Of a stretch of DNA of 55,779 bases, positions 33,027 through 44,965 are shown one piece after another (the first letter of the stretch is position 1; each line of letters begins with the position of its first letter). The translations under genes were made by a program, and so were the position numbers. This stretch comes from a virus (Duplodnaviria > Caudoviricetes): positions 1 to 55,779 of the IMG/VR virus record IMGVR_UViG_3300032397_000016, one strand, 5' to 3'. Below the pieces are notes generated by a model. The model was given only the letters and a program-made list of their open reading frames with translations, was not told the origin of the DNA and did no database searches.

Positions 33027-33398
33027 ATGCCTTTTCAGAAGGGACAAATCGCCAACCCTTACGGCCGCCCCAAGGGTACGTTCTGCGGTAGAATCCAAGC
33101 GTTGAATATACTGGATTCGATATGTGCAAACAAGAAAAACCAAGTGCTGCTCAAGGAAGCGCTGCAAGAGGAGTTTGAGGTAGACCCGTCTAAGTTCTTT
33201 AAGCAACTGATTATCCCGCTCTTGCCCAAACACCATGACATAACGAGTGCGGGTATGGCAATGTCTACCGTCACGCCCGAGCAAGTCCTTATAAAGATGG
33301 CTACGATGATGGCTCCGCCCCCGTCCAACAAACCAACCAACAAACCAACCAACAAACCAACCAACAAACCAACCAAGCGCGTGAGACTGAAGCCATGA
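33027..33398 (+). CDS. Terminase small subunit (putative)
   Basis: PFQKGQ..NP.GRPKG N-terminus; directly upstream of TerL. Confidence 0.7.
   Translation: MPFQKGQIANPYGRPKGTFCGRIQALNILDSICANKKNQVLLKEALQEEFEVDPSKFFKQLIIPLLPKHHDITSAGMAMSTVTPEQVLIKMATMMAPPPSNKPTNKPTNKPTNKPTKRVRLKP
33325..33376 (+). repeat. 12-bp tandem repeat CCAACAAACCAA x4 (NKPT)
   Basis: Read directly from the sequence. Confidence 0.9.
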
Positions 33399-34759
33399 TA
33401 AGACGATATATCAACCCGTCTTATCGTGTGATGGGTACCAGCCCCGCGCCTACCGTGGCGTGGAGCCAGCACAAGTACCATCCTGAACAATACCGCTTGG
33501 CAACATCTACCAAGAAGTTTGCATATGTAACCGCAGGCCGCGGCTCCGGCAAGACCGAGATAGCCAAGCGCCGGCTAGTTGCATATCTAGCCGTCAAGAA
33601 GCCGTGGGACGACCCCCGTTACTTCTATGCGGCTCCCACATATGCACAAGCCAAGCGCATTGCTTGGCATAGCATCCTACGGCTAATCCCCACTGAGTGG
33701 ATTGCAGCGAACGGGATAGACCGGTCGGAGTTGTGCATACGTACAATCTTTGGCTCCGAACTGTGGGTCGTGGGTCTTGACCGCCCCCAACGTATTGAGG
33801 GTGTACAATGGGACGGTGGAGTCATGGACGAATCTTGTGATATAAGACCCAAGACCTTCGACTTGTCTGTGCTCCCCGCTCTCTTGCACCGTAACGCTTG
33901 GTGCTGGCGCATTGGGGTTCCCAAGAGGTTTGGCATAGGTGCCGCCGAGTTCCGTAAGGCTTGGATGAAGGCGCGCAAGGGGGAATTGGAGGACTCAGAC
34001 GGGTACACATGGTCCGGTGAAGACATCTTGCCGCCCGACGCTCTTAAGATGATTAAGAGCATGGTAGACCAGAAGGACTACGACGAACAGATAAGAGCCA
34101 AGTTCGTATCAACCGCCGGAGGTATCTTCTACGCCTTCGACGAGGACCGTAACGTAAGGCCGTGTACATATGACCCGAGCAAGCCCATTCTAGTAGGCTC
34201 TGACTTCAACGTAGACCCGATGTGTTGGGTGATAGCGCAGCGTCACGGCCCCGGTGATGTTGACACGGACTGGCTGGAAGTCATGGACGAAATCTGGTTG
34301 CGGGACACGAACACCCCGGCTACCCTAGATGTGCTCTGGGATAGATACCATACTCATAAGAGTGGGTTCGAGTTCTACGGGGACGCGACGGGCAAGGCCC
34401 GCAAGTCCAGTGCAAGCATATCGGATTACATGCACATCCGTAACGACTGGCGATTCTTGGATGGAGGCCGGGTCGTGCGGTACCTTAAGAGCAACCCGCC
34501 CAAGGCTGACAGGTTCGCCGCGTGTAACGGGTTGATATGTAGTGCGGACGATACACGCCGGCTTTACATAGACACAAGATGCAAGCATCTAATCGACGAA
34601 ATGACTAGCCGGACATTCAAGCCCGGCACAAGCATCCCCGACGACAGTGACCTGGACGTGGGCCACATCACGGACGCATTGGGCTATCTCGTCTACAAGC
34701 AATTCCCAATCAGGTTGCGACTCACGAACCAGTACGAGGTTGCGATTACGGGCGCATAA
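33395..34759 (+). CDS. terL: Terminase large subunit
   Basis: AGRGSGKT, AAPT, MDE; nuclease GSDFN.DP, DAT, H..DALGY. Confidence 0.92.
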   Translation: MIRRYINPSYRVMGTSPAPTVAWSQHKYHPEQYRLATSTKKFAYVTAGRGSGKTEIAKRRLVAYLAVKKPWDDPRYFYAAPTYAQAKRIAWHSILRLIPTEWIAANGIDRSELCIRTIFGSELWVVGLDRPQRIEGVQWDGGVMDESCDIRPKTFDLSVLPALLHRNAWCWRIGVPKRFGIGAAEFRKAWMKARKGELEDSDGYTWSGEDILPPDALKMIKSMVDQKDYDEQIRAKFVSTAGGIFYAFDEDRNVRPCTYDPSKPILVGSDFNVDPMCWVIAQRHGPGDVDTDWLEVMDEIWLRDTNTPATLDVLWDRYHTHKSGFEFYGDATGKARKSSASISDYMHIRNDWRFLDGGRVVRYLKSNPPKADRFAACNGLICSADDTRRLYIDTRCKHLIDEMTSRTFKPGTSIPDDSDLDVGHITDALGYLVYKQFPIRLRLTNQYEVAITGA

Positions 34760-34771
34760 GGAGGAATAGAT

Positions 34772-37700
34772 ATGTCCCGGAAGTCAGGCGGCAACGGCAG
34801 AGTCAGGCTCGCCCTCTCCAGTGAGGCACGGCAGGCCATCATTGGTCCCAACTGGATAGGTGAACCTATCTTGAAGGATGCCAAGGAAACCAAGCGTCCC
34901 CCTGAGGCTGTCGATAAGACTGAAGAGGCTGGGGAAATGACAGCCCAACAGGTTGTCGGCTCTGTGGGCATTGCCCTTGGAGGGATGCTCCCTGTAGCCA
35001 TGCCCGTATCTGCAACCCAGTATCGCGTGATACGTAAGCACCCGACCGTTTCCCTCGTACGGCAATATCTAGCCGCGCCTATCCTTGCCGGGAGTTGGAG
35101 CGTCGATGCCGACGAGGACGCGCCGGACGAAGCCGTCGACCTCATACAGAAACATGTGCTCCCGTTGCGATACGACTATCTCATGGACTCCATCTTTGGG
35201 ACGGTCGACTGGGGTTGGCAAGCATTTGAGAAGATATATGAGTACAAGGACGGGAGCATCGTCATAACCAAACTGAAGCCGTTACTTCAAGACCTCACGA
35301 CGATTCTGGTGCTCAATGACACGGGCGCGTTCGCGGGGGTGCGGCAGGACTACCCGAGGCTGGTAACCCTTCTCACTGATAAGGTACTGCTGGTATCTTG
35401 CCGTGTCGAGGGGACCAATTGGTACGGCACCAGCCTGTTGGAGAATGTCCGGGGTGCGTACGACAATTGGAAAGATGTCAATGACTCGGCCAGTCGGTTT
35501 GACCGCAAGATAGCGGGCGCTCACTGGGTTGTCCACTACCCTCCCGGCAAGAGCGACTTCAGAGGTGTCCGTAACGTCGACAACGGTGAGATTGCAGACA
35601 TCGTAATCGCTGCATTGGAATCGAGTGGCAGCATCAGGGTTCCCAACTCACTGGCCAACTTCGTGGACGAGATGAACACCAAGGCCGGGGCGACACAATG
35701 GATTATCGACATAAAGGAATCCAGCCCCGGCCAGACCAGCGGCTTCGTTGACCGGCTCAAGTATTGCGATACCCAGATGGTTCGCTCATTCCACATGCCC
35801 GAGCGGGTCTTGCTTGAAACGGAGTTTGGCACCAAGGCCGACGCCGGCACGCACAAGGACTTGGCAGTTACAAATCTCGAACTGTTGGACGGGCAATTCA
35901 GTTCGGCAATCAACACCCAACTGGTTGACCAGTTGCTCGCGCTTAACTTCGGCCCCGAGATGATGGGCAAGGTACGCATCAAGCCCAGTCCCCTCGTAGA
36001 TGTTACCGCGCTCATGCTTGAAAGGATGTACACCCAGATTCTCGCCAACCCGCAGGGCTTCGTCGAGGAGGCCGGGAACGTTGACTGGGATGCAGTCAAG
36101 GACCGTCTTGATATACCGAAGTCTGCAACTACCACCCAGATGGGTGACCTCACGGACGAGTCAGAGGAGACGGAGGGCGGGGACGAAGACGGGTCCAATC
36201 AAGATAAGCCCATACCTGAGGGCATGGACACCAAAGAGATAAAGGAGGTGGCCGCGTCGCTCCGCCCTTTTGAGAGAGCCTTGCGGCTCGCAGGATTTGA
36301 CCCCAGCCAAGTCAGAGACGAGTCGGGTAGATGGACAGATATGGGCGGGGGTGTCCATACGGTTGCTATGGAGCCATCTGCACGGTTCCAGAAGTCCAAG
36401 TATAGTTGGGCCAAGCCCATTCTTGAACGTCACAAGAGCGAAATTCAGAAGCACGGTAGGAAAGTTTCTCAGCCGTCCGCGTCGGCCCTTATTGAATACC
36501 AGAACTTTGGATATGAACGTGTTAACGGTGCCTTACGGCACGGTAGTTTCGGAGGGGCTCGGGACAACATGCGGGAAATCAGCGCGCTAGATAACGCAAT
36601 GATTACTCCAGCACCGGAGTCGATGGTTCTTTACCGCGGTCTTCGCTCTACTGTTCTCCGGGGTCTGCGTGTTGGAAAGGTTTATACTGACAAAGGATTT
36701 ATGTCCACATCTTGGGACCCCGATGTTGCCCTCCGGGGCGCGTCCGCCGCGGCGTACGAGTTGGATGAAGAAATGGTTTTAGATGTGCACGTACCTAAGG
36801 GATTCCCGTTGGCCTTTCCGTCCGCAATGGGTATCGGCGGCTGGCGTAGAGAGCGGGAGGTTATTCTGCCGCGCGGTACAAGATATATAGTTCGCTCAAT
36901 AGACCGGGGCTATCATGGTGGCCCAGAGGTCGAGGTATTCCCGCCCAAGGGAGGGTTTAAGAAGACGAAAGTGGTGGCCGCAAGTCTTACAGAAGACGCA
37001 GACCCCGGAGAACAGTTTGGCGACGAGTTGACGGATTGTGATAAGTCGTGGGCCGAGGTCCTTGAGTCGGCAACAGGCGACGATGTGTTGTCCCTTGCAG
37101 GATTCGACCCGAGCCAAGCCAGGGACGAAGATGGCAAGTGGACCGCTCTTGGTGGTGGGGGTATTGAGACCCATCTAAAGCAAGGCGGCAAGTTACCAAA
37201 GCATATCACCCAGCGCATACCTCCGGCATGGACTGATGTAGAAATCAATCTCAACCCCAACGCCAGGAACTACGTGCGCGCCCGCGACGCGAAAGGGCGC
37301 CGGCAACTGATTCAGAACCCCGCATTTGTACAGGCCCAGAGTGATTCCAAGTTTACACGTGTACGCTTGTTGGACTTTGCAAAGATTCACGCCGAGACCG
37401 TCAAGGACGCCAAGACCGATGAGGCCGCCGCGGCGTTGCTCTTGATACAAGAGACAGGCATCAGGCCAGGAGGAGAGAAGGACACAGGGGCAGACGTACA
37501 ATCGTACGGGGCTACTACACTACTCGCGGAGCACGTCAAAAAGGGCGGCGCTTTGTTGACATTCATTTCTGGTAAGTTACACCATGACCCCGACAAGCCG
37601 CCTAAGACAATAGACATGCCAATATCAGACCCCGTTGTTCGGGTCATGCTCAAAGAACGCGCCGCACGCGCGGGCAAGGGCGGGCGTCTGTTTAACACTG

Positions 37701-38539
37701 ACGATACCAAGTTGCGAGCGTACACGGATAAATATGGTGCTCATCCCAAAGACTTCAGGACCGCAGTAGGAACGGCCACAGCCGTGGCGGCAATTAAGGA
37801 ACTAGGCCCGCCGCCCAAGCCAACGGGTGATGCAAAGAAGGACATGAAGGCTTACAAGAAACACGTGGCGCTGGTGGCCAATCGCGTGGCCGCAAAACTT
37901 GGCAATACGCCAACCATTGCGCTACAGTCATATATCGACCCAAAGGTATTTCTCCCGTGGCGAAAGCCACTAGTCGCGAGTTTGGCGGGCTATGACCCCA
38001 GCCAACCGCGTGACGGGAGCGGTAGGTGGGACGAGACCGGGGCGGGCAGCGCTGTCAGTGGTGAAGACAAGTTGACGTCTTCGGTCAAGCGGTTTAAGAC
38101 GGGCGACGAGTGGATGCACGCGATGCCGCTGCGCGCTTCGGGTCTAATATATAACTGGGTAGACGACACATCACGAATAAAGGATGACGAGAGCGCGACA
38201 AAGAAGTTCGAGAGTATTATAGCACGCGCCCCTCACCCGAGAGCCACCCTATATCACGGGGCCGCTTTTGCTCATTGGCATACAAGGTTTGCCAAAATAC
38301 GGAAGGGTTCCGTAATTACCGTTGAACGTCCTTCATCATGGACGTCGATGCGAAGTGTAGCACAATCTTTTGGCAGAGGAGGGGTCGTTTTCAAGGTCAA
38401 AACCAACAAGGCGGCGGATATACGCGTTTTTAACCAAGAAGAGGGTGAGTTCATTGTTCCCAGAGGAACAAGGTTCAAAGTTGTAAGCATAAGGAAGGGT
38501 AGATATGAGATGTTCGTCAAACTAAAGGAGGCGTCGTGA
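34772..38539 (+). CDS. Portal polyprotein: DUF935-like portal + ADP-ribosyltransferase + DNA topoisomerase IB + second ART-like domain
   Basis: Portal position after TerL with GWQAFEK.Y, YG.SLL, LVDQLLALNFG. ART1: LYRG/MSTS/EREV.LPRG. TopIB: IPPAW, TGIRPG, YGATTL, KDFRT, LGNT, SYIDP. ART2: LYHG/SSWTS/EGEFIVPRG. Confidence 0.88.
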   Translation: MSRKSGGNGRVRLALSSEARQAIIGPNWIGEPILKDAKETKRPPEAVDKTEEAGEMTAQQVVGSVGIALGGMLPVAMPVSATQYRVIRKHPTVSLVRQYLAAPILAGSWSVDADEDAPDEAVDLIQKHVLPLRYDYLMDSIFGTVDWGWQAFEKIYEYKDGSIVITKLKPLLQDLTTILVLNDTGAFAGVRQDYPRLVTLLTDKVLLVSCRVEGTNWYGTSLLENVRGAYDNWKDVNDSASRFDRKIAGAHWVVHYPPGKSDFRGVRNVDNGEIADIVIAALESSGSIRVPNSLANFVDEMNTKAGATQWIIDIKESSPGQTSGFVDRLKYCDTQMVRSFHMPERVLLETEFGTKADAGTHKDLAVTNLELLDGQFSSAINTQLVDQLLALNFGPEMMGKVRIKPSPLVDVTALMLERMYTQILANPQGFVEEAGNVDWDAVKDRLDIPKSATTTQMGDLTDESEETEGGDEDGSNQDKPIPEGMDTKEIKEVAASLRPFERALRLAGFDPSQVRDESGRWTDMGGGVHTVAMEPSARFQKSKYSWAKPILERHKSEIQKHGRKVSQPSASALIEYQNFGYERVNGALRHGSFGGARDNMREISALDNAMITPAPESMVLYRGLRSTVLRGLRVGKVYTDKGFMSTSWDPDVALRGASAAAYELDEEMVLDVHVPKGFPLAFPSAMGIGGWRREREVILPRGTRYIVRSIDRGYHGGPEVEVFPPKGGFKKTKVVAASLTEDADPGEQFGDELTDCDKSWAEVLESATGDDVLSLAGFDPSQARDEDGKWTALGGGGIETHLKQGGKLPKHITQRIPPAWTDVEINLNPNARNYVRARDAKGRRQLIQNPAFVQAQSDSKFTRVRLLDFAKIHAETVKDAKTDEAAAALLLIQETGIRPGGEKDTGADVQSYGATTLLAEHVKKGGALLTFISGKLHHDPDKPPKTIDMPISDPVVRVMLKERAARAGKGGRLFNTDDTKLRAYTDKYGAHPKDFRTAVGTATAVAAIKELGPPPKPTGDAKKDMKAYKKHVALVANRVAAKLGNTPTIALQSYIDPKVFLPWRKPLVASLAGYDPSQPRDGSGRWDETGAGSAVSGEDKLTSSVKRFKTGDEWMHAMPLRASGLIYNWVDDTSRIKDDESATKKFESIIARAPHPRATLYHGAAFAHWHTRFAKIRKGSVITVERPSSWTSMRSVAQSFGRGGVVFKVKTNKAADIRVFNQEEGEFIVPRGTRFKVVSIRKGRYEMFVKLKEAS

Positions 38540-40860
38540 TGAGTAAAGACCGATTCACGGACTCGGACGACCTTGAAGTCGAGCCGGGTACAGATGTTGA
38601 CATTGAAGACGGAGGTGTCGACGATGAGCCGACGGACTTTTTTGAGTCCGATGACGTCGAGCCGTTGGCCCTCGCACACGACGACGACGACGACGACAAC
38701 GACCCGGACGACGAGTTGCTTCCGGAGACTGACCCGGAAGTTATTGCAACACTTGGATTCGACCCTCTCGACGAGTTGGACCTGCTAGAAGAGGGTGAAG
38801 TGTTGCAGTTAGCGGGATATGACCCCAGCCAGCCGCGCGACGAGGGTGGTAAGTGGACGGACGGCGGAGGTGGCGGCGCGCCGTCTACTGATGAAGAAGG
38901 GTTAGGCGTGCCCCCGAAGAACGCGCCGGAACAATGCAAAGATTTGTTCAGGGCACGTTGGCGCGCATATCAAAATCTACGTAAGGCCAAGACTGCCGAG
39001 GACAAGGTCAAGAACCAAGCGGCTTTCGACAAGGCTACAGCCGACCTTGAGCAAGCCAAGAAGGAGCACCCTGATTGGTTCGTGAAGTCGGAAGAAGACA
39101 AAGCGCGGTGGCGCAAGGCCAAGGAAGACAAGCCGGGACGTATCAAGAGTGGTAGAGGCGACACTCCGGACTACATGAGGATGGGTGCGATTGAATTGGA
39201 AGAAGCATTTAAGAAACGGTTTTCCGCTAAGCAGTTCGACGCCAGTGGCCCGGCCGCACTTGTGGTTGAGGGGGACCCGACTGGTGGTAGCCGACACGTC
39301 CAAACGGCTAAATATATAGCAGTGGAAGCCGAAAGAGTCGACGCTGAGTTCCCGGGCGTTGATTTGCGTATCAATTCTCCGTTTTCGACCGTCATAGAGC
39401 CAGTATCACGTGTGGACGGTCAATATCTGGGAACATACTCCGCCCTGGGGAGTAGGATTCGCATTGCCGGCAAAGGCGGAGACATATCCGCAAAAGAAGA
39501 ACCGTTTACAATAGGTGCTTTCCACGCCACTCACGGGGATTCCAGCACGTGGCGGCACGAACTCGGCCACCATATCCAGTCTACCGTTGTGCAAGACAAG
39601 GCTCTTGACGGGAGATGGAGTGATATGTACGTAAAGCACTCCAGCACGTGGTGGGAAAAGAAGGTGTCCCGTTACTCCGCTACAAATCACCGCGAGGGGT
39701 TCGCGGAAGCGTTCGCGGTGTATACGTCGCCGCTCTATGACCACGCCCATCCCGCGCTTCCGAGAGAGATACATAATTTCATGAAACAGGTTACCGGACA
39801 CATAGAAGAGGGTGAAGTGTTGCAGTTAGCGGGATATGACCCCAGCCAGCCGCGCGACGATAGCGGCAGATGGGATGAGACAGGGGCAGGCGGTGGGCGA
39901 GTGCTTGCGCTGCCTGTACCTCCTAAGAACGCGCCGGAGGCGTGCAAGGATTTATTCCGTGCGCGTTGGAAAGCATATAGTAATCTACGCAAGGCCAAGA
40001 CTCCGGAGGAGAAGGCCGAGAGACAAAAGGTTTTCGACAAGGCCACGGCGGACCTTGACCAAGCCAAGAAGGACCATCCGGACTGGTTTGCCAAGTCAGA
40101 AGAGGACAAGAATAGATGGCGCAAGACGAAAGAGCCAAAGGAACCGAAGGAACCGCCGCGCGTTGAAGAGGGTGCCCAGTCGGATTTTCACGCGCTTCAT
40201 AGCGGGCAAGCGTTGTCGGAAGAGTATGGAAGACGCTTCAAGACTACCGGGGGTGACAGTAGCAAACTGTTTATGGATGAGGGTGACAGTGATTCGTTCA
40301 TAACAGCCCGGCACGTGGCTGCAAATATGGAACGTATGAATAGTGAATGTCCTGGTCTTGGGCTGTCGTGGCGCGGACCTGTGTCCGTTTCTATTACAAA
40401 AGGGGAAACCGTCCACATCCCCAAAACATGGTGGGCGAGTGAATCTTCTGATGCGTGGGGTACATATGCGGCCGCGATGGGTGGAACTATAAGGATGGGT
40501 GCCCGCGCTGATTTTACTGAGCAAGAATTGCCAATAACGGTTGGAAGGTTCCACGCCGCCAACGGCGACGCAAGCGTATTTAGACATGAGTTGGGGCATC
40601 ATGTTGAGTTCGGTCTACCAAAAGAGGTTAATGAAGAGTGGCGTGTTATGTACCACACTAGGGACGCGCCCCAAGGCGGTGAATCACCGGCGCGCACCGC
40701 TTGGTGGACCAAAAAGGTTTCGAGTTACGCGGCTACTAATTATCAAGAGGGGTTCGCGGAAGCGTTCGCCGCTTACACGTCACCGTTGTACAACCATGAG
40801 AAACCCCAACTCCCGAAAGAAGTGCATGACTTTATGAAGAAGATAACCGGGCACAAGTAG
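38536..40860 (+). CDS. Head-associated protein with acidic N-terminus and two tandem zincin (lethal-factor-like) metallopeptidase modules
   Basis: Two copies of leader + helical PPKNAPE domain + RHELGHH...S.Y.ATN..EGFAEAF. Confidence 0.8.
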   Translation: MMSKDRFTDSDDLEVEPGTDVDIEDGGVDDEPTDFFESDDVEPLALAHDDDDDDNDPDDELLPETDPEVIATLGFDPLDELDLLEEGEVLQLAGYDPSQPRDEGGKWTDGGGGGAPSTDEEGLGVPPKNAPEQCKDLFRARWRAYQNLRKAKTAEDKVKNQAAFDKATADLEQAKKEHPDWFVKSEEDKARWRKAKEDKPGRIKSGRGDTPDYMRMGAIELEEAFKKRFSAKQFDASGPAALVVEGDPTGGSRHVQTAKYIAVEAERVDAEFPGVDLRINSPFSTVIEPVSRVDGQYLGTYSALGSRIRIAGKGGDISAKEEPFTIGAFHATHGDSSTWRHELGHHIQSTVVQDKALDGRWSDMYVKHSSTWWEKKVSRYSATNHREGFAEAFAVYTSPLYDHAHPALPREIHNFMKQVTGHIEEGEVLQLAGYDPSQPRDDSGRWDETGAGGGRVLALPVPPKNAPEACKDLFRARWKAYSNLRKAKTPEEKAERQKVFDKATADLDQAKKDHPDWFAKSEEDKNRWRKTKEPKEPKEPPRVEEGAQSDFHALHSGQALSEEYGRRFKTTGGDSSKLFMDEGDSDSFITARHVAANMERMNSECPGLGLSWRGPVSVSITKGETVHIPKTWWASESSDAWGTYAAAMGGTIRMGARADFTEQELPITVGRFHAANGDASVFRHELGHHVEFGLPKEVNEEWRVMYHTRDAPQGGESPARTAWWTKKVSSYAATNYQEGFAEAFAAYTSPLYNHEKPQLPKEVHDFMKKITGHK
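38786..38843 (+). repeat. 58-bp exact direct repeat, copy 1 (encodes the cargo leader)
   Basis: Identical to 39803-39860. Confidence 0.9.
39803..39860 (+). repeat. 58-bp exact direct repeat, copy 2
   Basis: Identical to 38786-38843. Confidence 0.9.
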
Positions 40861-40874
40861 ATAGGAGACCGAAC

Positions 40875-41129
40875 ATGCTTGGCGAACCGAAGTGCTACAC
40901 CAGAAATTGTACGCATTTTCAAGGGGTCAAGAGCGACGCGACGGACGACGAGCCGGAAAAGAACGAGCGCAACGTCTGCGATGCGTTCCCCGACGGCATC
41001 CCCAACGAAATCGCTTACGGGGACAACCCGCACACCGGGCCGGTTGAAGGCGACAACGGTATTACATATGAAGTGGCGCGTCATGCGGGTGCGTCCGATG
41101 TGCCGGAAGACGAACCTGGGGAAGACTAG
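40875..41129 (+). CDS. Small Cys/His protein (C.AFPDGIP..I..G...H..P..GDNGI), candidate immunity protein
   Basis: RBS AGGAG; directly after the peptidase gene; motif I recall occurring beside head-associated toxin domains. Confidence 0.65.
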   Translation: MLGEPKCYTRNCTHFQGVKSDATDDEPEKNERNVCDAFPDGIPNEIAYGDNPHTGPVEGDNGITYEVARHAGASDVPEDEPGED

Positions 41130-42034
41130 TGCCAAAGGTAACCAACAAACAGAGACACCAGGCGCGCTTGCACCTACGGGACACGCGCGCATATGAACTC
41201 CTGGCCATACGCCTGGCCGCGCGCGTGGGCCTGCGCGTGCAACGCCGGGCACTTCAGGGCTACAAGCGCCAAGAGCAAGACTGGGCCAAGCACGCGCTGG
41301 ATGTGTTCACAGAGGTCAAGCCGGTGCTTGTAGACGCGGTGATGTTGGCATATTTCAGGGGGTTGATTCGCGGTAATCTGTCCGGCGGAAAGACCCTCGC
41401 GCTTGCGCGGGGGTTCAGCGCCCTTGACCGCGCAGTGGACGCCGCCGCCGCCCGGCTTAAGGTGAGTAATCGAGTTGTGTCTGCGCTTGCTAGACTTGCA
41501 GACGCACAAGCAATCAAGGTGTTGGATGGCGTGCGTGGAGCCGTCGAGAAAAAACTAGAGGCCGCAGTTGTAGAGATAACCCGGCAAAACCTCCATGTCG
41601 ATGCGGGGGTTAACCTTCTGCGCAAAGCCTTCTTTGCATCCGGCATAAAGCCCACCAACTCATTTCAACTAGAGGCGATATTTAGAACCCAGACACAACT
41701 GGCGTACCAGGCCGGACGTTGGCAGGCAAACCAGGAGCCGGAGATTCAGGAAATCTTATGGGGATATAAGTATGTGACAGTTGGCGACGACCGTGTAAGA
41801 CCAAGCCACCAACTGCTGGAGGGTGTGACGCTTCCCAAAGACCATCCCTTCTGGTTGACAAACTGGCCACCTAATGGCTGGGCGTGCCGCTGCCAAGCCA
41901 TTGAGATATTCGACGAGGTCGATGTGGTCGAGCCGCCAGATGTGACGGAGATAGACGGGGAATGGGTTGTGCCTGGTGCCGACGAGGGATTTGGGTACAA
42001 CGCAGGTGAGTTGTTCCGGGCGTTTCTAGTCTAG
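41129..42034 (+). CDS. Minor head morphogenesis protein, Mu gpF / SPP1 gp7 family
   Basis: IFRT, Y..GR, YVTVGDDRVRPSH..L.G, FW...PPNGWACRC, D.GF.YN.G. Confidence 0.92.
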   Translation: MPKVTNKQRHQARLHLRDTRAYELLAIRLAARVGLRVQRRALQGYKRQEQDWAKHALDVFTEVKPVLVDAVMLAYFRGLIRGNLSGGKTLALARGFSALDRAVDAAAARLKVSNRVVSALARLADAQAIKVLDGVRGAVEKKLEAAVVEITRQNLHVDAGVNLLRKAFFASGIKPTNSFQLEAIFRTQTQLAYQAGRWQANQEPEIQEILWGYKYVTVGDDRVRPSHQLLEGVTLPKDHPFWLTNWPPNGWACRCQAIEIFDEVDVVEPPDVTEIDGEWVVPGADEGFGYNAGELFRAFLV

Positions 42035-42313: not shown

Positions 42314-42382
42314 GCTTACTGAAGAGTGGGACCGTTGCGGAGAGATGCTCATGCGGCCTTGGCGACAAGCAGAGGTATAGTG

Positions 42383-43462
42383 ATGCCACACATAAGCAAA
42401 CACGAGTGGCCCGAGAGCGCCGCCTTGTGCTTTGTCTACAAGGGCAATGCTGCGGTCGCTCTTTCCGCCGAGACGGTTGAGGAAGGCCATCCTGTCCGAT
42501 TGTTCCGCAAGGGACTTATCAAGATTGGCGACTGGTTTAAGAGCGCGGACAATCTCTCATTCACAGTTACCAATGAGTCCCTCCAGCATTGGGCAAGGAC
42601 GTTCAAGGAAATGGTGGCCAACGCTGTCGCCGTTCCCATCATGCTTGGCCACACGCTGGAGGCTGACAAGAGCAGGGGCAAACTTGTAGATGTGTTCGTG
42701 GATGGGGACGAACTGGTTGGCGTACTGAAGATGATAGGGCGGGACGGCATTGACCTGGCCCACAGGACGGATGTCAGTATCTACTCCCCGCCCTCGTACG
42801 TCGACGGCAAGAAGAACACTTACCGCTGGCCCATCACCCATGTTGCTGTGTGTGTGGACCCGGTAATCACAGGGCTCTCCGAGTGGAGCGCGGTGGCGGC
42901 ATCGCTATCGCCGGCACTCATGTTGATGGATGCACAGGCCAAAAGGAGCGACGAAATGGACTGGTCCAAAATCAAGGCGGCGTTGGGTATCACTGAGGAC
43001 ATGGCAGACAAGAATGCGGAGGCGCTCATTCTGTCCCATGTCGAAAAGTTGGCCGTGGACAAAAAGAAGGTCGACGACGACATGGCCGCGCTGAAACTCT
43101 CGCACGCCGGGCGCACGGTCGACCCGCTGTTGGTCACCCTCGGCGCTGAGAACAGAACGGCACGTCTCAATGCGTTGGTGGCCGGTGCCAAGATTACCAA
43201 GGCCGTCCGCGACGGCCTGGAGGGCATCTTCATTGGTAAGGACGGTGCCGCCCTTTCGCTGACTCTCTCACGTGCACCTGTTGGCGATTCGGACCCCGAC
43301 CGGTTCAACGCGCTCTGTCTGGAACTGGCCAAGAATGACGTGGTGGTGCTCAAGGAACAAAGCGGAGCCCAGTTGCTCTCGCTGGCCGGGGGCGGCGGTG
43401 CACCCGGCAAGGCCGACCTGGTGAAAGACGCCGAGGCAAGAGCCGCGGCCGCAAAAGCCTAG
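42383..43462 (+). CDS. Prohead protease/scaffold (Mu gpI-like), with probable internal scaffold start at 42956
   Basis: PIMLGH, DVSI, HVA....P.I.GL; internal AAGGAG-N7-ATG (MDWSKIK). Confidence 0.75.
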   Translation: MPHISKHEWPESAALCFVYKGNAAVALSAETVEEGHPVRLFRKGLIKIGDWFKSADNLSFTVTNESLQHWARTFKEMVANAVAVPIMLGHTLEADKSRGKLVDVFVDGDELVGVLKMIGRDGIDLAHRTDVSIYSPPSYVDGKKNTYRWPITHVAVCVDPVITGLSEWSAVAASLSPALMLMDAQAKRSDEMDWSKIKAALGITEDMADKNAEALILSHVEKLAVDKKKVDDDMAALKLSHAGRTVDPLLVTLGAENRTARLNALVAGAKITKAVRDGLEGIFIGKDGAALSLTLSRAPVGDSDPDRFNALCLELAKNDVVVLKEQSGAQLLSLAGGGGAPGKADLVKDAEARAAAAKA

Positions 43463-43526: not shown

Positions 43527-43883
43527 ATGGCCCCGTACGAAGAGGAAGGCTCGCACCTGAGCGACGTAGTTGCATGGGAAGAGGACAACGATTACTCCCG
43601 TGCAAAGGTCACAATCGTCGCCAGCGAAGTGGTGGTACTCGGCACGATTCTGGAGGCGGTTTCGGGTGGCTACAAGGCCTGCGCGACCGAAGCGAACGCG
43701 TGCGCCATCGCGCTCGCCCCCGCATCGCCCGGCTCCGGCGAAACCATCGACATCCCTGCAATCGTGCGCGAGGCCAAGGTGTTGGCCGACGGCCTCGACT
43801 ACGCCACCGATTCTTTGACCGAGCCCGAAACGAACGCCGCGCTTCTGGCAAAGGGCATCGTGGTTGAAGCGACGGTTGACTAG
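43527..43883 (+). CDS. Head decoration protein (lambda gpD-like)
   Basis: SD.V.WE....YSR..VTI, LG..L, A.AIAL, L..KGIV; immediately before the MCP. Confidence 0.8.
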   Translation: MAPYEEEGSHLSDVVAWEEDNDYSRAKVTIVASEVVVLGTILEAVSGGYKACATEANACAIALAPASPGSGETIDIPAIVREAKVLADGLDYATDSLTEPETNAALLAKGIVVEATVD

Positions 43884-43963
43884 ACCAACGGCGGACTAAG
43901 CGGTTAGTCCACTGCCGTATATTGATGTGAAGAAACGGTAGCCGGGTGACAAGGAGAGAAGCC

Positions 43964-44965
43964 ATGCCTGTGACGCTAACGGACGTTTTCAATTCGGACA
44001 CCTTCAAGGTAACGACCTTGACGGACTCGTTGACCAAACTACCCTTCAAGCCGTCGAGAATCGGCGCGATGGGCCTCTTTCAGGCGAGTGGCATCCCCAC
44101 GACCACACTCGTCGTTGAGGAGAGGGATGGACAACTGGTACTTATCCCGACGCAACCTCGCGGCGCGCCGTCCAACAAACTGGCCAAGACCAAGCGCAGG
44201 GCGCGGTCGTTCCAAGTCGTGCACCTGCCGCTGGAGGACACCGTGCTCGCGGACGACGTCCTGAACGTCCGCGCGTTCGGCTCAGACCAGCCAATGGCCG
44301 GGGTCAACCAGGTGGTCAACGACCGACTTATGGTGATGCGTCAAAGCCACGAAGTCACGCTGGAATACCAGCGGCTTGGCGCGGTGAAGGGCGTTATCGT
44401 GGACGCCGACGGAGCCACCGAGATATACGACCTCTTCGCTGAGTTCGACATCGCGGCTCCCACCATCGACTTCCTGCTCGACGTCGACACAACCAGCGTT
44501 CGGCAGCGAATCATTGCCCTCAAGCGGCTCATGGAGGCCGCGATGGGTGCGTCGATGTATGACCATATCCACGCCTTTTGCGGCGCGGATTGGTTCGACG
44601 CACTCATTGACCATCCTTCGGTCTATGACGCATATGAGCGCTTCCGTGACGGTGAGGCGCTCCGCAACGACCCGCGGAAGGGCTTTGAGTTCGCGGGCAT
44701 CACATTCGAGGAATACCCCGGCACGGTCTCCGGCACCAAGTTCGTGGCCGACAACAAGGCGCACTTCTTCCCCGTCGGCGTGCCCGGTCTGTTCGTCACG
44801 AAGTTCGGCCCGGCCGACTTTATGGAGGCCGTCGGAACGGTGGGACAAGCGCTCTATGCTAAGAGCATGTTGCTCCCACTTGACAAGGGTATCCTTCTGC
44901 ATACCCAGAGCAATCCGATTTCGCTCTGCACGCGGCCCGAAGTGCTCTACACCGCCACTGAGTAA
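43964..44965 (+). CDS. Major capsid protein (lambda gpE family)
   Basis: D.FN...F....LT, MGLF, RGAP, T.EY.R.GA.KG, F.FAGI.FEEY, QSNP...CTRP. Confidence 0.92.
   Translation: MPVTLTDVFNSDTFKVTTLTDSLTKLPFKPSRIGAMGLFQASGIPTTTLVVEERDGQLVLIPTQPRGAPSNKLAKTKRRARSFQVVHLPLEDTVLADDVLNVRAFGSDQPMAGVNQVVNDRLMVMRQSHEVTLEYQRLGAVKGVIVDADGATEIYDLFAEFDIAAPTIDFLLDVDTTSVRQRIIALKRLMEAAMGASMYDHIHAFCGADWFDALIDHPSVYDAYERFRDGEALRNDPRKGFEFAGITFEEYPGTVSGTKFVADNKAHFFPVGVPGLFVTKFGPADFMEAVGTVGQALYAKSMLLPLDKGILLHTQSNPISLCTRPEVLYTATE

Follow-up and report, generated by a model that had tools for sequence, protein, structure and literature searches.

Why does the portal protein of a tailed phage run on, within a single reading frame, into three enzymes that are each introduced by the same short peptide, and why does that peptide recur twice in the gene that follows? 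The question is raised by IMG/VR virus record IMGVR_UViG_3300032397_000016, a linear contig that derives from an uncultured tailed phage in a sediment metagenome; its full 55,779 bp (56% complete as estimated by CheckV) constitute the window analysed here. Within the window, a portal polyprotein of 1255 aa (34772-38539) and an adjoining double-zincin gene (38536-40860) together hold five copies of a conserved peptide, hereafter the leader. We reason that the two genes form a portal-anchored polyvalent effector array, in which protease sites would be cut and the leader would act as a capsid-handling signal; taken as a whole, we regard this reading as evenly poised between standing and falling.

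The leader pattern G[FY]DPSQ.RD..G[RK]W was found exactly five times in a six-frame regular-expression search of the window, always on the plus strand (as are all the genes and features described below), and a looser core, R[DG]..G[RK][WF], yielded no further copies in the six frames. The DPSQ cores start at 36293, 37100, 37988, 38815 and 39832, and the same five leaders make up a 59-nt family of direct repeats (at 36281, 37088, 37976, 38803 and 39820). As delimited by both the regular expression and the repeat search, they read LRLAGFDPSQVRDESGRWTDMGGG (leader 1, 36281-36352), LSLAGFDPSQARDEDGKWTALGGG (leader 2, 37088-37159), ASLAGYDPSQPRDGSGRWDETGAG (leader 3, 37976-38047, with LV ahead of it giving LVASLAG), LQLAGYDPSQPRDEGGKWTDGGGG (leader 4, 38803-38874) and LQLAGYDPSQPRDDSGRWDETGAG (leader 5, 39820-39891). 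The window leader thus spans about 25 residues, [FY]-D-P-S-Q-x-R-D-x-x-G-[RK]-W-[TD]-x-G-G, and passes in every case into a Gly-rich stretch (DMGGG, ALGGGG, ETGAG, DGGGGG and ETGAGGG for leaders 1 to 5, respectively). Since the copies are only 63-81% identical in their DNA, and reach 63-71% against the reference copy, it is as a peptide that the leader is conserved and selected. In the AlphaFold2 (AF2) model of a zincin module the leader (residues 1-31) is predicted to be disordered, with a predicted local distance difference test (pLDDT) value of about 35, and it does not dock on the domain.

The polyprotein is encoded by a 1255-codon frame that is open throughout, without a stop, and that contains matches to four Pfam families above their gathering scores, arranged as portal, leader 1, first ADP-ribosyltransferase (ART1), leader 2, type IB topoisomerase, leader 3 and second ADP-ribosyltransferase (ART2). 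The Mu-type portal domain (residues 84-413, 35021-36010) matches PF06074 Portal_Mu with an E value of 1.7e-14 (54.4 bits, cut-off 23.9). ART1, of the Alt/VIP2-like kind (residues 556-711, 36437-36904), matches PF03496 ADPrib_exo_Tox (E 3.4e-16, 59.6 bits, cut-off 23.4), and ART2 (residues 1170-1253, 38279-38530) matches PF01129 ART (E 2.6e-9, 37.2 bits, cut-off 22.3). The motifs LYRG (621), STS (645) and ERE (694) in the former and LYHG (1161), WTS (1190) and EGE (1224) in the latter are what we take to be the R-S-E catalytic triad; ART2 has His where Arg is expected in a motif of the R-S-E type. Between the two lies the catalytic core of the topoisomerase (residues 871-1049, 37382-37918; PF01028 Topoisom_I, E 2.4e-8, 34.1 bits, cut-off 23.7), which reaches E 9.2e-10 when the module is scanned alone, together with a weak match to Top1B_N_bact. 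Its motifs TGIRPG, SGK, DFRT, GNT and SYIDP (the last at residue 1053) presumably belong to the catalytic pentad, with the Tyr of SYIDP near the C-terminus.

The start of the zincin frame overlaps the stop of the portal gene (TGATG), the likely ATG being at 38539 and preceded, 8 nt upstream, by AGGAGG (38526-38531); hence it represents a separate, translationally coupled gene. Its 774-aa product consists of an acidic N-terminus of 90 aa, leader 4, a helical hairpin, zincin 1, leader 5, a second helical hairpin and zincin 2. The whole protein matches PF07737 ATLF, the family of lethal-factor-like zincins, at 34 bits (cut-off 27.4), while the modules scanned alone give E 1.1e-5 (module 1; 25.7 bits, under the cut-off) and E 0.2 (module 2). 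The core of zincin 1 (39526-39729; ATLF match at residues 331-398, HELGH at 39556-39570; pLDDT 70-86 in the AF2 model) has a paralogue in that of zincin 2 (40558-40785; HELGH at 40585-40599): the gene is internally duplicated (repeat families at 71-77% nucleotide identity), the two modules are 53% identical as proteins, and both keep HELGH and EGFAEAF. When they were aligned with the five zincin modules of another phage (L029), HExxH, ExFAEA and the leader core were invariant. Four of those five modules are encoded in one 1576-aa ORF (L029:1693-6420, with a weak intein-splicing match), where the variant EEDHPRDxxGKF heads three modules, and the fifth, with the leader EADHPRDEKGRF, in the neighbouring gene (L029:433-1428). 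Leader and zincin, one copy each, also occur together in L006 and L114. A relative of the zincin gene, P0153 (802 aa), combines a MuF domain with two tandem zincins (HELGH and HEYGH) and has no leader motif, so the tandem zincin pair seems to be a conserved unit able to ride on MuF.

An earlier note, made from the letters of this DNA alone, had described five enzyme domains that each stand behind the same leader and a Gly linker, three of them in frame with the portal, and a bare MuF, the cargoes riding on the portal and on a neighbouring gene. All of this agrees with what we found, down to the leader coordinates, while the interpretation offered there is borne out in part; the agreement includes the MuF protein (301 aa, 41129-42034), in which Pfam recognises PF04233 (residues 177-258, E 1.7e-16) and no C-terminal cargo.

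Strongly acidic tracts lie 5' of leaders 1, 2 and 4 (36140-36250, 36990-37080 and 38540-38800), and a run of Asp is seen in the N-terminal 90 residues of the zincin product; a propeptide, charge balance in the capsid and DNA mimicry are conceivable roles. Leaders 4 and 5 are 81% identical over 96 nt and identical for the first ~57 nt, and together with the preceding EEGEVLQLAG (38786-38842 and 39803-39859) they are nearly identical in DNA, which would make this sequence a hotspot for unequal recombination altering the number of zincin modules.

The leader reaches far beyond the window. With a degenerate DNA pattern encoding DPSQxRDxxG[RK]W, at least 117 stretches were recovered from IMG/VR and, among the matches listed, the in-frame peptide was present in 98 loci and 104 ORFs (136 instances, 114 unique contexts). 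Within these 114 contexts, F, Y or W invariably occupies position -1 (114/114), although the pattern does not demand it, T or S is favoured at +12, and Gly or Ser comes next. The same pattern detected 39 stretches in 596 Gb of prokaryotic genomes (21 with the in-frame peptide, from many phyla), and leader variants exist (DPNQ, NPSQ and EEDHPRDxxGKF). A profile built from 116 copies was run against 1.84 billion cluster representatives; with E <= 1e-3 as the threshold it matched 1,531 protein clusters, of which 253 remain at <= 1e-10 and 19 at <= 1e-30. Statistics of copy number, spacing and position were drawn from the best 149 of these 1,531 matches: the proteins carry between one and 10 copies (the five of the window are not exceptional) at a median spacing of 238 aa; in 80 of the 149 no more than 60 aa separate the N-terminus from the first copy, and in only two is the last copy followed by less than 60 aa, from which it follows that the leader precedes domains and does not trail them. 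The D-P pair is invariant in the strict set; in the wider one, its P is found in 404 of ~545 instances, with D, S or N before it.

Close relatives of the two window proteins proved hard to find. By tblastn against 50,697 phage genomes one of them gave a single domain-level match (an ART-MuF protein of phage Percival) and the other none, a whole-protein scan of IMG/VR for relatives returned nothing, and a word-index search limited to leader 1 returned the query alone. Against the phage genomes, the 24-aa leader produced tblastn matches at chance level (E 7), and the polyvalent protein of L036 produced domain-level matches only. The leader was absent from the proteins of cultured phages that we checked (Mu H, F and I; Percival gp3 and gp4; Stenotrophomonas phage AXL1 gp15 and gp16), and these Mu, Percival and AXL1 proteins provided no cultured phage with both virion proteomics and a leader. 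Library scans identified no Pfam, NCBIfam or PHROG model that covers it. The best matches of a profile search in solved structures of the PDB (E 0.14-3.3) were treated as chance, and so was a 9-residue leader match in 9rku, a 'putative tail biosynthetic protein' (E 0.9).

Carriers and cargo were tallied with Pfam in two sets of leader-bearing proteins. In the first (69 non-redundant IMG/VR proteins, among the matches listed), the carriers comprised Phage_portal (6), Portal_Mu (2), Phage_portal_3 (2), Phage_portal_2 (1), the P23-45 portal (1) and MuF (4), and the cargo ART-PolyVal (6), ADPrib_exo_Tox (6), Zeta_toxin (5), PARP (3) and ATLF (2), next to single matches for InPase, LPD3, PBECR1, 2H, GNAT and an XkdF-type protease. 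The second (41 of the best 149 library matches, taken as every third and limited by size) contained ADPrib_exo_Tox (10), MuF (7), ART-PolyVal (6), GNAT (5), 2H (4), PARP (4), Topoisom_I (3) and KptA (3), with Acb1, InPase and NUDIX matched once each. Topoisomerase IB, present in 3 of these 41 proteins, is thus a recurrent type of cargo. No conjugation-type family appeared in either tally (in the second, among 25 families in 41 proteins). The architecture of portal, leader and cargo was encountered with four portal families (e.g., L061, L067, L068, L034, L040 and L056), the gap from leader to cargo being ~20-90 aa in most of the proteins examined and ~175 aa in L108. Among the same-strand neighbours of 29 leader loci (131 ORFs) there were 8 terminase, 9 portal, 7 capsid and 3 S78 protease matches. 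The prediction that the leader would turn up in head-module proteins of unrelated phages, ahead of diverse enzymes, is well corroborated by these 1,531 clusters and the two tallies.

The Acb1 domain, found in 1 of the 41 library proteins, is an anti-CBASS enzyme, and its position behind the leader implies that anti-defence enzymes use the same leader. A further arrangement is found in L079:1542-4787, whose 1082-aa frame runs from Portal_Mu (63-427) through a leader (495) and ~400 uncharacterised residues to MuF (915-1072); judged by its domain matches, it is a portal-MuF fusion joined via the leader.

Modules are exchanged at the leader, in line with the modular cassette that had been proposed from the window. 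Up to residue 996 the proteins of L010 and L012 share 91% identity, and past it they are unrelated; as their last leader stands at 964, the swap of the terminal cargo took place immediately behind the leader and its linker. Likewise, L036 differs from L015 by one additional leader-bounded module. Single-linkage clustering of the modules over-merged them and was put to qualitative use only.

How much of this is new? Polyvalent proteins, which unite unrelated enzymatic domains in one polypeptide, are encoded among head genes and typically include ARTs and zincins; effector domains fused to the portal or to MuF have already been described among them, and head packaging, injection and processing by lethal-factor-like metallopeptidases (MPTase) have been proposed (Iyer 2017, PMC5512222). 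Packaging and injection of portal- or MuF-fused effectors are the published reading, with which the NAD/ADP-ribose (ADPr) sequel agrees (PMC9503650). The 1255-aa ORF of the window unites a portal with distinct enzymatic domains in a single polypeptide, the next gene adds two zincins, and both lie among portal-terminase head genes; because their architecture matches the portal/MuF-effector fusions of Iyer 2017, the locus is a member of this known class, and the general idea of virion-delivered effector fusions is not new. What sets the window apart from the described polyvalent proteins is the presence of the same leader on every module, those of a separate gene included, as well as the topoisomerase IB, which is mentioned once only in PMC5512222. 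Text searches of that paper showed no description of the leader or of a junction motif, a full-text literature search by motif strings gave no match (supplementary alignments lay outside that search), and the literature on capsid targeting and polyvalent proteins yielded nothing on the motif. The pervasive leader appears to be undescribed and experimentally tractable.

Parallels can nevertheless be drawn with several delivery systems. In phage T4, cargo is guided into the prohead by a short N-terminal peptide, the capsid targeting sequence (CTS), which is then cut by the prohead protease. The leader does not resemble the CTS in sequence. The T4 signal lies 5' of the cut, is removed and is confined to T4-like phages, whereas in the model of the earlier note the leader lies 3' of the cut and is kept, and it spans many head types; the comparison is a positional analogy only, which draws on the proximity of the first leader to the N-terminus (80 of the best 149). 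T4 gpAlt itself, a component of the prohead core (PMC9958956, which cites Mullaney and Black 1996), is an ART that is packaged in this core and delivered with the DNA, and in these respects it resembles the array that we propose. In the MuF polymorphic toxins of temperate phages, MuF carries variable C-terminal toxins (Jamet 2017, PMC5576092), and the text of that study has no wording on a junction motif, linker or cleavage. These toxins share with the window the use of a head-morphogenesis domain as carrier, but the carrier in the window is the portal, and its MuF consists of the Phage_Mu_F domain only, so that the combination of an N-terminal MuF with a C-terminal toxin is absent. Pre-toxin motifs (VENN in CdiA, DPxGL in Rhs) are short peptides between the delivery part and the variable toxin tips, situated at recombination breakpoints. 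They differ from the leader in sequence, in serving a secretion system instead of a capsid and in multiplicity, as the leader occupies up to 10 junctions per protein. The cargo-loading peptides of encapsulins are, like the leader, short and conserved, and a flexible Gly/Ala/Pro linker ties them to diverse enzymes inside an HK97-fold shell; they usually sit at the C-terminus and dock into a defined pocket of the shell, whereas the leader precedes its domain and capsid binding is not predicted for it.

We propose that the array would enter the procapsid tethered to the 12-mer portal, and that the zincin product would enter by virtue of its own leader or of its acidic N-terminus. A Mu gpI-like protease would then cut VAA|SL and LxLA|G just 5' of the leaders and free five enzymes starting with G[FY]DPSQ, which would exit together with the DNA and, at an early stage of infection, act upon host targets, the likely activities being ADP-ribosylation, DNA relaxation or nicking, and proteolysis. 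The leader would serve as a module-autonomous signal inside the capsid (for loading, retention or exit) and not as the recognition site of one protease. That the window proteins are cleaved, packaged and injected is something we infer from sequence. More tentatively, and as a proposition that we think will rather fail than hold, the leader could be a portable cargo label, applicable to any protein domain and working across head types: labelled domains would be loaded next to the portal, released as the head matures, and would leave before the DNA or along with it. If this were true, many tailed-phage lineages would share one address label for injected anti-host or anti-defence enzymes, functionally analogous to the T4 CTS and to the loading peptides of encapsulins, yet pan-phage in scope and able to be used as often as 10 times in one polypeptide.

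The candidate for the maturation enzyme is encoded at 42383-43462 (359 aa, or 378 aa if translation starts at 42326) and would combine a putative prohead protease of the Mu gpI kind, over its N-terminal ~185 aa, with a scaffold made up of C-terminal helices. Its N-terminal ~185 residues attain an ESM Atlas feature score of 0.95 to clusters of PF10123 Mu-like_Pro, 17 of the 30 nearest clusters are Mu-like_Pro, and the structural TM values are 0.66-0.79; going by these models, it looks like a prohead protease of the Mu gpI type. VAASL is found in the polyprotein at 36248-36262 and 36974-36988 (candidate protease sites 1 and 2, located 11 residues 5' of leader 1 and 37 residues 5' of leader 2) and again at a domain boundary of the protease-scaffold protein (42893-42907), in which LSLAG, followed by GGGAP (43376-43402), lies 24 residues from the end. 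LxLAG abuts four of the window leaders, and leader 3 has LVASLAG. All nine candidate sites place Ala before Ser or Gly, and they resemble the A|S preference of assemblin-fold proteases. The polyprotein and the protease-scaffold protein share four 5-mers (0.8 in shuffles, P 0.018), and four 4-mers of the flanks are shared with the latter (0.7 in shuffles, P 0.016). The shared VAASL and LxLAG peptides are hints, read from sequence, of maturation cleavage. Among the fetched loci, tblastn gave the protease-scaffold protein a single relative (L090:2513-2950; 28% identity over 156 aa, E 6e-6), which is situated directly 3' of a 672-aa ORF with the leader at its start.

A number of results weigh against the array being processed and handled in this manner. 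The LxLAG and VAASL flanks are specific to the window, positions -2 to -14 being variable in the 114 unique contexts elsewhere (among the matches listed); the LxLA flank reported by the earlier note adjoins the window leaders as described and does not extend to the others. Because the flanks are found in the window only, the assignment of cleavage sites comes down to P values of ~0.02 in proteins rich in Ala, Leu, Ser and Gly. P0003, the sole relative of the protease-scaffold protein, has other residues at the two aligned positions. The claim that 42383 starts a prohead protease gains from the ESM Atlas likeness and loses from the libraries: the protein has no match in Pfam, PHROG or NCBIfam, BLASTP of its 378-aa form against Mu gpI gave nothing (E 1.9), its AF2 model is unusable (pLDDT 34.8), and the gpI-like assignment is that of a language-model and predicted-structure look-alike only. 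As regards the enzymes, the domains proposed in the earlier note were recovered above the Pfam cut-offs for the portal, ART1, the topoisomerase and ART2, whereas the zincin fold went unsupported by Foldseek, which returned no significant match of the model in the PDB (lethal factor ranked second, E 0.39). A common partner of the leader was sought in 27 records (L020, L058 and L060 were left out), four of which (L018, L039, L047 and L072) stem from loci where the in-frame leader was not confirmed, leaving 23 confirmed ones. MuF was rejected as a universal partner (8/27 records, 6/23 confirmed, 4/13 of those at least 90% complete), as was Peptidase_S78 (PF04586) as a shared prohead protease (6/27 records, 6/23 confirmed), and the search for PF10123 in the 27 records was uninformative (0/27, the control being likewise zero). 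The motif-bearing phages thus have no single detectable protease family, and no MuF, common to all. A portal that stays uncut, with its 83-kDa extension, might release nothing. Finally, in the Logan assembly of run X1, which is introduced below, the contigs break at leaders 4 and 5 and none bridges 38816-39830 (zincin module 1), so it is on the original assembly that the number of zincin modules, two, depends.

Which other explanations could account for a peptide of this kind? The one that survives best, unlikely as we hold it to be, regards the leader as a passive joint (a rigid turn with a Gly hinge), by which unrelated domains could fold independently of each other, and a recombination seam, in an array that stays intact or remains on the portal. 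Swap and insertion breakpoints fall right at the leader, which is predicted to be disordered and undocked and for which no partner emerged from the MuF and S78 searches, and some polyvalent proteins are transferred unprocessed, as are the N4 virion RNA polymerase (vRNAP) and the plasmid ArdC/TraC1 (PMC5512222). A mere joint does not sit well, however, with the near-invariance of ~10 residues (P, Q, P, R, D, G, R/K and W) across phages of many host phyla, nor with a conservation at the protein level that leaves the DNA of the window copies at 63-81% identity. Moreover, the leader opens stand-alone proteins, in which there is nothing to join, and almost never comes after the last domain. Conjugative elements carry polyvalent proteins too, yet neither Pfam tally contained a conjugation-type family, which points to a capsid-specific role.

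We consider it improbable that processing takes place in the conserved leader itself, through a cut within the motif at the labile Asp-Pro bond, by autocatalysis or by a protease common to many hosts or phages, in which case the window-specific flank would be irrelevant. It is indeed the motif, and not the flank, that is conserved at module boundaries across unrelated phages; the D-P pair is invariant in the strict set and its P frequent in the wider one, the predicted disorder would render it accessible, and stand-alone proteins keep 13-30 residues ahead of it in the manner of a propeptide (L099 begins with MISLCYNSRQINFY-DPSQ). Nevertheless, since variants have E-E, S-A, N-K or K-P in place of D-P and keep QPRDxxGRW or HPRDxxGKF, the D-P bond is not an invariant part of the leader. 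No protease family is shared (Peptidase_S78 and PF10123 fared as stated above), and ~12 conserved residues with a Gly-rich linker contain no catalytic module of the kind that Asp-Pro self-processing domains possess. The motif was also not found in the profile search of solved structures or in the literature text.

Still less probable, in our judgement, is that the two zincins process the array at the leader or its flank, in the capsid or after injection, as in the autoprocessing by MPTase domains that Iyer put forward as a hypothesis (PMC5512222). The zincin gene directly follows the polyprotein with a coupled start, HExxH and a downstream Glu are kept in both modules, leader and zincin recur together in other phages (four plus the neighbour in L029, one in L006 and L114), and P0153 fuses two zincins to MuF. 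But ATLF occurs in 2 of the 69 leader-bearing proteins of the first tally and no peptidase family in the 41 of the second, and because zincins are so rare among leader-bearing proteins, a general dependence of the leader on these enzymes is excluded. The leader is disordered in the AF2 model and lies outside the active-site cleft, and the peptidases may equally be effectors directed against host proteins.

The integrity of the assembly was evaluated with Logan contigs. A contig of X1 (5,469 nt) matches 34000-38815 with 0 differences, and by covering this stretch it spans all three portal-cargo junctions; X1 is possibly the source sample, which would make it the product of another assembler and not an independent sample. 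Contigs from other samples cover 36997-37203 with 0 differences (X2; the junction of ART1, leader 2 and topoisomerase), 39208-39358 (short contigs of X2 and X3) and 39614-39845 (X3; part of module 1 and the junction to leader 5); the shares of runs X2 and X3 are small and were not taken as a sign of habitat. The fusion is hence no obvious chimera, a concern that had been raised beforehand. That it, or the number of modules, is an artefact of repeated leader-coding DNA, as the near-identity of leaders 4 and 5 and the X1 breaks at precisely these leaders (with 38816-39830 unbridged) could suggest, is very improbable in view of the second assembler's difference-free contig with its three junctions, the frames open over 1255 and 774 codons, the divergence of the zincin modules, the X3 coverage from another sample, and a portal-leader-cargo design that is seen in many independent contigs.

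The choice of protein cargo, its loading and its ejection are understood for few model phages (T4, P22, P1 and N4), and a leader shared by no fewer than 1,531 protein clusters, and seen behind portals of several unrelated families, offers a handle on this question, as it can be deleted, transplanted to reporters and used as bait. It also delimits the modules inside giant polyvalent proteins, and provides a sequence rule by which candidate injected effectors (ARTs, topoisomerase IB, zeta-toxin kinases, GNATs, 2H phosphoesterases, Acb1 and zincins) can be recognised in metagenomes. Were it proven to be a loading tag, the leader would become a tool for packaging proteins into phage capsids; were it only a hinge, the locus would be an ordinary, though rich, member of the polyvalent proteins.

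The genes of the head module follow each other in the order large terminase (TerL), portal fusion, zincin gene, an 84-aa ORF, MuF, protease-scaffold protein, gpD-like protein and gpE-like major capsid protein. The putative large terminase (33395-34759, 454 aa), directly 5' of the portal fusion, has weak matches to Pfam AAA_19 and Terminase_6N, both under the cut-off, and is identified mainly by its position. At the other end, the lambda gpD-like decoration protein (43527-43883; PF02924 HDPD, E 5.1e-12) and the major capsid protein of the lambda gpE type (43946-44965; PF03864, E 2e-98) were assigned. The 84-aa ORF (40875-41129) has no leader, no Pfam match and a match to phrog_33375 at E 5.9e-4, and the ESM Atlas associates it with a small family of viral hypothetical proteins. 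A relative (L076:5388-5516; tblastn, 42% identity over 43 aa, E 1.7e-5) is found on another viral contig, directly 3' of two leader-bearing genes.

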